A stretch of DNA of 46,463 bases from Escherichia coli. Its GTDB lineage: Bacteria > Pseudomonadota > Gammaproteobacteria > Enterobacterales > Enterobacteriaceae. Positions within the stretch are counted from its first letter, which is position 1, and every line of letters starts with the position of its first letter. The notes beneath the pieces were generated by a model, which was given only the letters and a program-made list of their open reading frames with translations, ran no database searches and was not told the DNA's origin. The stretch is from the NCBI RefSeq assembly GCF_003334255.1, contig NZ_QOWU01000044.1; one strand, written 5' to 3'. Positions 78 through 46,463 of this stretch are shown piece after piece. The position numbers were made by a program, and so were the translations under genes.

Positions 78-248
78 GTTTCCGCCGTAACTGTTTACAC
101 CATTGTCTTTAGAAAAATAATGCAGACCGACAGCTTTACCGTACAGATCTACTTTGTTGCCATCTTTGTTATAGATTTCTGCAGCGTTTGCAGTACCTGC
201 TACTAACAGAGCAGGGACGATCACTGCCAGAATATTGCGCTTCATCAT
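78..248 (-). pseudogene. ompF: ompF 5' fragment (signal peptide plus about 35 mature residues of outer membrane porin F), truncated by the IS1 insertion
   Basis: ORF 51..248 translates [47 protein letters not shown]..., the OmpF N-terminus. After GGNGD the frame runs into IS1 sequence (AANLLI then stop) instead of MTYARLGF. Confidence 0.85.
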
Positions 249-44022: not shown

Positions 44023-44682
44023 TTAATCGCGGCTAGCGAAGCCCAGAATGCTCAGCAGGCTGACGAAGATGTTGTACAGCGAAACATACAGGCTAACCGT
44101 GGCACGAATATAGTTCGTCTCACCGCCATGAATGATGTTGCTGGTTTCAAACAAGATAGCGCCAGAGGAGATCAGAATGAAGACCGCGCTGATCGCCAGA
44201 TGCAGAGCAGGCAGCTGCAGGAAGATATTCGCAACCATACCAATCAGCACCACCACAATACCCGCCATCAGCATACCGCCGAGGAACGACATATCTTTGC
44301 GGGTGGTCAGCACATATGCAGAGCAGCAGAAGAACACTAACGCCGTTCCGCCCAGTGCCATAGCGATTACGTCACCCATTCCGGCAGACAGATAGGTGTT
44401 CAGAATAGGTCCGAGGATATAACCCAGAAAACCGGTAAAGGCGAATGCGGAGATAATCCCGGTCGGCTTATTCGCCGTTTTATAGGTCAGGAACATCAAA
44501 CCATACATACCCACCAGCGTCAGAATCAGACCCGGAGATGGCAGCATCAGCACCGTACTGGCAGTTGCGGTAATCGCCGAAAAGGCCAGCGTCAGGCTCA
44601 GCAGAAAATAGGTATTACGCAGCACCTTATGGGTGCTAAGCAGTGATGTACGGTCATGTGAAGAACTAACAATACGATCCAT
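44023..44682 (-). CDS. yccA: FtsH modulator YccA (Bax inhibitor-1 family membrane protein)
   Basis: 219 aa, [30 protein letters not shown]...; seven hydrophobic segments. Confidence 0.96.
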
Positions 44683-44844
44683 TGAGTCACTCTCTATGAC
44701 AGATGTAATTAATTAAGCAGCATAATGATAATGCGTAAGGGCACCCAGAAGTTTTACCCATCTTTACGCATTTGATCTGGAACAGGTTTAACAGCGGATT
44801 ATCAGGTCATTAAGCAAATATAACGCCCTGAGAATTTCGACAGG

Positions 44845-44880
44845 CAAAAGAAAAAGGGGTTAGCATTTAGCTAACCCCTT
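44845..44880 (-). terminator. Rho-independent terminator downstream of the serT remnant
   Basis: aaggggttagc-attta-gctaacccctt hairpin, followed on the minus strand by TTTTCTTTT. Confidence 0.75.
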
Positions 44881-44888
44881 ATCTTATT

Positions 44889-44948
44889 TGGCGGAAGCGC
44901 AGAGATTCGAACTCTGGAACCCTTTCGGGTCGCCGGTTTTCAAGACCG
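44889..44948 (-). tRNA. serT: tRNA-Ser(UGA) 3'-terminal 60-nt fragment; not a complete tRNA (5' acceptor, D-arm and half the anticodon stem are missing); prophage attachment core remnant
   Basis: Reverse complement CGGTCTTGAAAACCGGCGACCCGAAAGGGTTCCAGAGTTCGAATCTCTGCGCTTCCGCCA matches the 3' part of serT. Upstream sequence (44949 onward) has no segment able to pair with the acceptor 3' strand. Confidence 0.85.
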
Positions 44949-45089
44949 AAGAAAAACAAATGAAAATCAGTGTAATACGTGAATCTGCTGAAAATTTAAT
45001 TAAATTTAACACCAAGAAAAATCAAGGTGTTAGGAAGTTGCTCATAGCTAGTATACCAAGTATTTTTGCCAGAAAATTTTCTGTATTGC

Positions 45090-46109
45090 CTACTTGCTAA
45101 CCACGAGCGGCAGATCCAGTGTTGGTGTGATTTTTGTTTTACGATCGTAAATCAACACCTGATTTTCTGTTTTATGCCCGCTGAAAATTTGTTTGTCGCG
45201 ACTGCTGCCTTCGTAATCTGAGATCCCCTTGGCTTTTATGTCGTGAAAATTGCACCCGAACGGAACGCCAACTTTTTGCTCGGCTGAGCGTTTAGCCTGA
45301 TTCCACCAGTTGTTCAGCGTTTTAGCTATGACTTTCCCGCCTTTGGTTGTATTGATCACATATTCGCATGTACAGGAAGATACATTTCGGGCTAACTGGA
45401 TCGCTGTACGTAATCGCGGTGACCATTCCTTGATTTGTTTGGTGCCGGTTTTGTTTTGCTCAATGTAGATCCCTTTATCCATAATATCCTGCCATTTCAA
45501 CTCAAGCACATCACCGAGCCTTGCCGCACAGAGATAGGAAATCTCCATTGCAATGCGTAACTGTGGAATTGCTTCCGCATATATCGCTGCATACTGTTCA
45601 TCGGTGATGTAAACAGTGCGGGCTTTAAGAGAGAATTTTCTGACTCCTTTACATGGGTTATTCTTCACGTATCCACGCTCATATCCCCACCCGTATACTC
45701 GACTCAGGCTTGCCAGTTCATGATTTGCCTGGGTCTTGCTCTCAAGCCCTCGTTTATCCATGAAAATTCTTACCTGCTCAGTTTTGACATTATCAGCAAG
45801 CACTTTTCCGAATACCATCAGCAACGCCTTCTGATGTTGTCGATAATCTTTTTGGGTTCGGGGGGCCAGTTCTGTAAATGCAGGGGAGTCCATAAACATG
45901 TGCCATAATTTAGCTACGGTCATTATGTTGTGGAGTTTTGCTTTTTCCAGTTCATAATTTTGCCAGACTTTAGCTACGCTGGTTTTCCGCACTCTTCCTA
46001 GCCCTATAGTTCTTGTACTTCCTTCTGGTTTCCACACGTAACTGTAACCATTCGATCTAACCCGCGGTGGCAGTACATTATCTTTTTTATTTTTTCTTGG
46101 TCTTCCCAT
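45090..46109 (-). CDS. int: Phage tyrosine integrase (lambda Int family)
   Basis: 339 aa; N-terminal MGRPRKNKKDNVLPPRV resembles the lambda Int arm-binding N-terminus; C-terminal region has an R...H..R...Y catalytic pattern (LGDVLELKW, HDIKAKG, SGHKTENQVLIYDR). Confidence 0.92.
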   Translation of the reverse strand: MGRPRKNKKDNVLPPRVRSNGYSYVWKPEGSTRTIGLGRVRKTSVAKVWQNYELEKAKLHNIMTVAKLWHMFMDSPAFTELAPRTQKDYRQHQKALLMVFGKVLADNVKTEQVRIFMDKRGLESKTQANHELASLSRVYGWGYERGYVKNNPCKGVRKFSLKARTVYITDEQYAAIYAEAIPQLRIAMEISYLCAARLGDVLELKWQDIMDKGIYIEQNKTGTKQIKEWSPRLRTAIQLARNVSSCTCEYVINTTKGGKVIAKTLNNWWNQAKRSAEQKVGVPFGCNFHDIKAKGISDYEGSSRDKQIFSGHKTENQVLIYDRKTKITPTLDLPLVVSK

Positions 46110-46329
46110 TGTTCAGTGCCTCAAAATCGGGTTCAGCAGAAACCAGTTCAGATGTTTTTGGCATCGTTGTCAGTCCGTGTGGAATATCCCTGCGTAGAAC
46201 TATTGGTTCGTTTTTAGGACCGATTACAAATGGGATGCCGTGCAGTCTTAACTGGTGTTGCTGTTTTGTGTATCGCTCGTATTTCGTGATCTCTTTAATC
46301 TCTGCTGGAGATAGAGTTAATTCGTACAT
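46087..46329 (-). CDS. xis: Excisionase-like protein
   Basis: 80 aa, MYELTLSPAEIKEI...NNGKTKKK; sits upstream of int and overlaps its start by 23 nt as in lambda xis-int; loosely lambda Xis-like at both termini. Confidence 0.65.
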   Translation of the reverse strand: MYELTLSPAEIKEITKYERYTKQQHQLRLHGIPFVIGPKNEPIVLRRDIPHGLTTMPKTSELVSAEPDFEALNNGKTKKK

Positions 46330-46463
46330 GTGGTCACGTGCCTTTACAGCATGACCGCCGCCACTATAGCTGGTGGGCGGCGATATGGGTTGAACATTAA
46401 AAATCAGCCTGACTCGGGATCAGTTTTTGCCAGATAGCTGAAACGTATTTTGCCTGATAACGG

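Follow-up and report, generated by a model that had tools for sequence, protein, structure and literature searches.

A probable lambdoid prophage of the CP-933M type in the serT gene, seen at its int/xis end at the edge of an Escherichia coli contig

The window analyzed here is a 46,463-nucleotide (nt) stretch of Escherichia coli DNA (assembly GCF_003334255.1, contig NZ_QOWU01000044.1), and our subject is its right-hand end, 44885-46463, where a truncated transfer RNA (tRNA) gene, serT, stands beside the genes for an integrase and a probable excisionase. An earlier note, made from the letters alone, had proposed that a lambdoid prophage lies in serT with only its int/xis end in view, and that the phage recombines at a core located in the 3' part of the tRNA gene. 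Alignment with the complete gene identifies positions 44889-44948 (minus strand) as nucleotides 29-88, the last 60 nt, of the 88-nt tRNA-Ser(UGA) gene serT, whose anticodon is at tRNA position 35; the minus-strand letters are CGGTCTTGAAAACCGGCGACCCGAAAGGGTTCCAGAGTTCGAATCTCTGCGCTTCCGCCA. The match to the complete serT locus continues for 4 nt past the end of the tRNA, giving a 64-bp exact block at 44885-44948. Next comes the intrinsic terminator of serT, found in a terminator scan as a hairpin at 44854-44880 (minus strand) with an 11-bp stem and a 5-nt loop; on the minus strand it is followed by TTTCTTTTGC, with the T-tract extending down to about 44845. A three-way alignment, described below, shows that this terminator is bacterial DNA identical to that of K-12, and past it lie yccA, tusE, and yccX, arranged as in K-12. 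On the other side of the fragment, the DNA starting at 44949 bears no relation to the K-12 locus; its GC content is 34-36%, compared to about 50% in yccA.

The fragment at 44889-44948 (minus strand) is a displaced 3' end of serT and not a functional tRNA. ARAGORN calls zero tRNAs in the whole window, including the interval 44889-44975 where the earlier note had expected none, and a search of 44600-45300 against Rfam gives no tRNA match, even at E<=1. Folding of the fragment joined to the DNA upstream of it is no better than that of shuffled sequences (z=0.11); the acceptor stem is absent. ARAGORN, Rfam, and the fold together rule out a functional tRNA at this position. Two kinds of sub-threshold Rfam match near the junction, ctRNA_p42d on the terminator and a small nucleolar RNA model, we attribute to chance. 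The description given at the outset, of a tRNA-Ser(UGA) cut down to its last 60 nt, keeping the native terminator and joined at 44948 to unrelated AT-rich DNA with which no cloverleaf can form, is accurate in each of its parts. In an annotation, 44889-44948 should be entered as a displaced attachment-site (att) fragment, not as a gene or as a pseudogene of unknown origin.

An intact integrase gene, int (45090-46109, minus strand), lies 141 bp from the serT fragment and encodes a 339-residue tyrosine integrase of the lambda Int family, as identified from the list of open reading frames, Pfam, PHROG, and an alignment to lambda Int. The protein matches Pfam PF00589 over residues 168-323 (E=1.2e-7) and PHROG integrase families with E values down to 3.8e-56; NCBIfam contributed nothing for it. 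Its alignment with the sequences of lambda Int crystal structures (E=1.4e-19) begins at residue 1, with the pattern MGRxR...LPP...GY...GLGR in the N-terminal part, and runs through the catalytic domain. Because the alignment extends from the first residue through the catalytic domain, the protein is predicted to be a three-domain, lambda-type heterobivalent tyrosine integrase. The active-site positions are R197, K220, H289, K292, H312, and Y321; all except K292, which we discuss below, align with lambda R212, K235, H308, H333, and Y342, respectively, and are kept in 116-120 of 120 homologues.

Overlapping int by 23 nt is an open reading frame (46087-46329, minus strand; open reading frame list, Pfam, PHROG) for an 80-residue protein of the DUF4224 family, a probable excisionase, or recombination directionality factor. 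Pfam files the protein only as DUF4224 (E=1.2e-8). In PHROG it falls into three families labeled excisionase, the best being phrog_1266 (E=1.9e-23), and the homologues found upstream of the related integrases of phages ST64B, ZF40, and F10 carry the same annotation. An AlphaFold (AF2) model gives a confident strand-helix-helix-strand-strand core; the alignment behind it is shallow, with 11 sequences, as the homologue search returned only close E. coli relatives. We detected no sequence similarity between the protein and solved structures, excisionases included, and no match to it in NCBIfam, and our literature search found no paper that mentions both DUF4224 and excisionase. We call the protein a probable excisionase on the strength of its position and family annotation rather than of a demonstrated fold or function. 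Together with int, it bears out the earlier claim of a lambda-family integrase within 150 bp of the tRNA fragment, preceded by an overlapping excisionase-like gene.

The last 67 bases of the window (46397-46463, minus strand) hold the 3' end of a prophage exonuclease gene, namely the last 21 codons and the stop with which the translation ends. The fragment gives a partial match to NCBIfam NF007259, below the cutoff. In JE86-ST05 and SW070917, two relatives with junctions 100% identical to that of the window, in which we read the body of the element, the gene at this place encodes an 823-residue protein resembling exodeoxyribonuclease VIII, or RecE.

Decisive evidence for site-specific integration comes from a three-way alignment of the window with the empty site of K-12 and the far junction of the JE86-ST05 lysogen. 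As had been anticipated, serT is followed directly by hya in K-12, in the order yccA-serT-hyaA with nothing in between. From the hya side through the 5' part of serT and the shared block, the K-12 site is identical to the far junction of the lysogen; from the shared block through the terminator and into yccA, it is identical to the window. K-12 attB thus equals the left half of the far junction joined to the right half of the window, and the pair of junctions is the clean product of recombination between attP and attB. Escherichia phage Evi, as deposited (LR597642.1), has an uninterrupted attP, in which an int-side arm matching 44949-45089 is followed by the 64-bp serT block and then by a distal arm matching the far junction of the lysogen. 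An exact-match search found the block (44885-44948, a feature without strand) to be identical in K-12 attB, Evi attP, and both JE86-ST05 junctions. A 64/64 match joined to the arm of a phage attP is not chance. Strand exchange must have taken place somewhere inside 44885-44948, and the block marks the junction on the int-proximal side, which the lambda convention names attL.

A truncated tRNA, taken alone, could have several causes, among them an artefact of assembly or the simple loss of the 5' part of serT by deletion. The breakpoint, however, falls exactly at the edge of the serT block of Evi attP, and the adjoining 141 bp match the Evi arm. Moreover, the same int-side junction occurs in 745 of the 5426 complete E. 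coli genomes that we used for all counts (about 14%), each an independent genome. An artefact or deletion is refuted by the three-way alignment, the Evi attP, and this count, and we give it almost no credence. The evidence supports a phage whose recombination core lies in the 3' part of serT: the site holds no tRNA that could fold, and the flank on the right is phage genes rather than hya.

Variation among lysogens narrows the crossover further. In SW070917, the far junction has CGCCAAACAA (locus L012, 2383-2390) in place of the CGCCAAATAA found in K-12 and at the window junction. This single-nucleotide polymorphism (SNP) lies 3 nt past the end of the tRNA, so that the two junctions of SW070917 share just 62 bp, and it places the crossover on the tRNA side of the SNP. 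At the start of the distal arm is a hairpin, carried by the phage, that resembles the serT terminator; in lysogens, this phage hairpin follows the regenerated serT and the native hairpin stays with the displaced fragment. Because attP carries a copy of the terminator, the regenerated gene still has one. The attP copy has diverged, reading AAGGGGTTACCAAATGGTAGCCCCTTT where the native terminator reads AAGGGGTTAGCTAAATGCTAACCCCTT (L002, 29600-29650; L004, about 2395-2436; compare window 44845-44884). The presence of both tRNA and terminator sequence suggests that this segment of attP was once captured from the serT locus of a related bacterium.

The sequence around the block suggests how the integrase may act. 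The int-side attP arm (44949-45089, without strand) is 141 bp of AT-rich DNA, 34-36% GC, and is conserved in Evi. Read directly, the anticodon stem-loop CGGT-CTTGAAA-ACCG (44934-44948, minus strand) is kept in attP. The shared block begins one base inside the anticodon stem, and the 7-nt loop (44938-44944) sits between 4-bp inverted repeats; we infer that this loop is the crossover, or overlap, region, with core-type integrase sites on either side. Such a stem-loop layout is reportedly usual for the core sites and overlap of integrases that target the anticodon loop. In our motif scan, the sequence TTRGTATA occurs in a single copy in the whole 46-kb window, both strands considered; this copy, TTGGTATA at 45052-45059 (minus strand), is a candidate arm-type integrase-binding site. 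Three more copies stand in tandem in the distal arm of the lysogens, spaced 11-12 bp apart and at the same positions as in Evi. These TTRGTATA repeats are candidate arm-type sites.

The comparisons give the following course of events. The phage attP holds a copy of serT nucleotides 29-88 with a look-alike terminator, and recombination within the shared block split the chromosomal gene. The bacterial 3' fragment was left, with its own terminator, beside yccA and the phage int. At the other end, as seen in the relatives, the bacterial 5' part of serT and the phage-borne 3' part make up a complete serT beside hya; the remainder of the shared block would serve to rebuild the tRNA gene, a principle set out in PMC4383910. 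A heterobivalent Int of the lambda type would bind both the candidate TTRGTATA arm sites and core sites on the anticodon stem, exchanging strands across the 7-nt anticodon loop, and for excision the DUF4224 protein of the overlapping gene would be required as a directionality factor.

We read the body of the element in the two relatives. SW070917 is 100% identical to the window over its last 25 kb, and 99.79% identical over the whole window. The element spans 50.3 kb in JE86-ST05 and 47.2 kb in SW070917, and in each it ends at a complete serT that ARAGORN calls, followed by hyaA; both are lambdoid. In JE86-ST05, int, xis, and exo come first, followed by dicB, genes for regulation and then for replication, Q, a methyltransferase gene, and three tRNAs, then a TerB-family gene, an esterase gene, lysis genes, and lambda-like head and tail genes, and finally lom, tail fibre genes, a YadA-like gene, ykgJ, the complete serT, and hyaA. 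The SW070917 element has a different head module; bodies vary in head genes, in morons, and in insertions of insertion sequences (IS). These two elements, the junction, and the Evi attP support the proposal of a lambdoid prophage in serT with only its int/xis end visible.

The earlier note had also pointed to cargo beyond the window as the likeliest place for anything new. The two relatives do not bear out that expectation: their content is ordinary for a lambdoid prophage. We infer from them that the body in the source strain would be about 45-50 kb, of ordinary lambdoid make-up. The slot downstream of Q, the methyltransferase gene, and the tRNAs is the place of stx in Shiga toxin (Stx) phages. 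Neither the JE86-ST05 nor the SW070917 prophage showed an stx gene. In JE86-ST05 (locus L001, 37783-38797), Q, the DNA methyltransferase gene, and tRNAs for Ile, Arg, and Arg are followed in this slot by the TerB-family gene and a DUF3927 gene; in SW070917 (L012, 28907-31714), the same slot downstream of Q holds only a DUF6645 gene.

The elements in both relatives show damage. In SW070917, an IS4 sits in the tail-tip gene J (L012, 5470-10197), and several genes are pseudogenes; because gene J is interrupted by IS4, this copy of the prophage is probably defective. In JE86-ST05, several early genes are frameshifted or truncated, and hyaA, beside the prophage, is frameshifted too. Such decay, along with signs of IS activity in the source strain itself (an IS1 in ompF) and the fact that the window enters the element for only 1.5 kb, would suit a cryptic scar in which the int-xis end survives and the rest has been deleted or heavily rearranged. 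In contrast, int and xis are intact here and 100% identical to those of the full-length elements of 47-50 kb, and the two ends of the element are about equally frequent: next to the 745 genomes with the int-side junction, 749 of the 5426 have the phage-type distal arm beside serT, which indicates that both ends are usually kept. The phage module alone is found in 739. The count for the distal arm depends on the query: one of 466 bp recovered only 40 genomes, since sequence more than about 75 bp into the distal arm is variable, and the figure of 749 comes from a recount with a query of 125 bp, by which phage-type and empty sites can be told apart. A decayed remnant is unlikely in our judgment; the copy in the source strain may be defective.

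Integrase modules are exchanged among types of element, and Shiga toxin-producing E. coli (STEC) can carry tandem elements at serT (serT_1-3, PMC10132054). A non-phage integrative element, such as a satellite or phage-inducible chromosomal island (PICI), a genomic island, or an ICE (integrative and conjugative element), might then use the same integrase and the same tRNA gene. Against this, the exonuclease VIII-like 3' end that follows xis fits the lambdoid early-left operon of every relative we read, phage Evi has the int-xis-exo segment at 90.6% identity, and we met no non-phage element that carries the int-xis-exo module. We consider such an element very improbable.

One residue of the integrase departs from the textbook active site. 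At the position known as Arg II (R311 in lambda), the protein has Lys, K292, within the motif FHDIK, and not the expected Arg. All 120 of 120 homologues with at least 55% identity have Lys there as well, as do the integrases of phages Evi, ST64B, ZF40, and BUCT709; Arg is kept in Pseudomonas phage F10 and in lambda. Arg II is 99.1% conserved, with few natural instances of Lys (Gibb et al, 2010; PMC2943603). The same study found that Cre R292K has activity in vivo as well as in vitro, although the covalent intermediate accumulates and ligation is less efficient. The many precise junctions found in genomes imply that integrases bearing this Lys work. This Lys is a natural variant, and a rare one; it does not constitute a new class, nor does it disqualify the protein as an integrase.

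We also considered whether this clade of integrases, from prophages of Enterobacterales and including those of Evi, ST64B, and ZF40, does more than tolerate the Lys, having settled on a different balance between cleavage and ligation, which the engineered Cre R292K mutant would suggest, or acquired a compensating residue. Separately, the body of the prophage in the source strain could hold unusual cargo. We put forward either idea only tentatively and think it unlikely. If the first were true, the clade would be a natural experiment on the chemistry of tyrosine recombinases, and the conserved Lys is in any case a small lead for recombinase enzymology.

Taking this evidence together, we conclude with high confidence that 44885-46463 comprises attL of a lambdoid prophage of the CP-933M type in serT, together with its first genes. 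Several points weigh on the other side. The window stops 1.5 kb into the element and shows, for the source strain, neither the body nor the far junction with its regenerated serT. SW070917, the best relative, differs from the window elsewhere, with an intact ompF and without the IS1 there. The counts of 745, 739, and 749 agree as numbers and are not shown to be the same genomes. Lys at Arg II lowers ligation in Cre, and full activity of this Int is an assumption drawn from the many precise junctions. Fold searches with the DUF4224 protein gave only sub-threshold matches, to BldC, MerR-type domains, the Mu repressor DNA-binding domain, and Pukovnik Xis. Finally, the position of the crossover, the binding of the arm sites, and the excisionase function are predictions.

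For the strain, the practical consequence is that records should list it as a lysogen carrying a lambdoid element of the CP-933M type at serT. The morons of the relatives include Lom/Ail-type outer-membrane proteins, a YadA-like adhesin, esterases, extra tRNAs, DicB, and HokD. Given these, and given that stx2f is carried on a serT-integrated prophage in E. albertii (PMC10673567), the full element of the source strain is worth reading.

The remainder of the window is ordinary chromosome. Positions 73-44948 are colinear with K-12 MG1655 in a single alignment with 99.79% identity and 4 gaps, and this chromosomal part is nearer to K-12 than to JE86-ST05 (98.4-99.0%). By its sequence, the host is a K-12-like (phylogroup A-like) strain, with no inserted DNA besides IS1 and the prophage. 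At the left end, positions 1-77 are a terminal inverted-repeat end of IS1, abutting ompF at about codon 57; the 5' part of ompF follows at 78-248 (minus strand), so the major porin gene is interrupted in the source strain. The IS1 end was recognized by its sequence, and the IS1 and ompF annotations under the matches agree. The IS1-ompF junction, searched as one piece, is present in no complete E. coli genome of the collection. The only Rfam family to reach its gathering score across the whole window is the PyrD leader (RF02373, 97.9 bits) at 17964-18037, an ordinary feature lying upstream of pyrD as expected.

The arrangement at serT belongs to a well-described kind. In the islands catalogued by Islander (PMC4383910), a tRNA gene is split and then restored by the element, the fragment and the regenerated gene mark the two ends, and a tyrosine integrase gene lies at one of them. 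The same arrangement is seen in the window and its relatives, where the 60-nt tRNA 3' fragment is displaced and int lies beside it, 141 bp away; there is no difference in kind, and the window shows the displaced-fragment end.

Several features of the element recall lambda. Its integrase is predicted to be three-domain and heterobivalent and can be aligned from residue 1; xis lies upstream of int with an overlap of exactly 23 nt, in the order int-xis-exo; and the attachment arms carry repeated motifs, including a tandem triplet in one of them. Other features differ. The window Int is only 25% identical to lambda Int and has Lys in place of R311, the element targets a tRNA gene and shares a block of 60-64 bp with it where lambda has a 15-bp core, the tandem triplet sits in the arm away from int, and the Xis-like protein is of the DUF4224 family. 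Members of the same integrase clade are found in Salmonella phage ST64B and Pectobacterium phage ZF40, which infect other hosts: their integrases are 45-49% identical to that of the window and have the motif FHDLKAKG with Lys at Arg II, and a DUF4224-type gene annotated as an excisionase lies directly upstream of int. The record of ST64B notes that its integrase resembles that of CP-933M.

Phage Evi is closer still: its integrase is 97% identical in protein sequence, the int-xis-exo segment is 90.6% identical in DNA, and its attP has the same 64-bp serT block, the arm motifs, and the terminator look-alike. Unlike the element in the window, Evi is a 40-kb phage record with an uninterrupted attP and is not integrated, and its arms are about 90% identical to those here.

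The prophage with the same place in the chromosome is CP-933M of E. coli O157:H7 EDL933, which lies between yccK (tusE)/yccA and serT (PMC5552260). An O157:H7 genome has the int-DUF4224-exonuclease module beside yccA with about 98% DNA identity, and both relatives that we read share the lambdoid order, from int-xis-exo through immunity and replication genes, Q, and lysis genes to those for head and tail; the link to CP-933M itself is made through this O157:H7 relative and the literature. The gene serT is also listed among the prophage sites of STEC (PMC8767318, PMC10132054). Both the type of element and its site were already known, and what lies at the end of this contig is a common accessory element, real but ordinary, of the kind that CP-933M represents.

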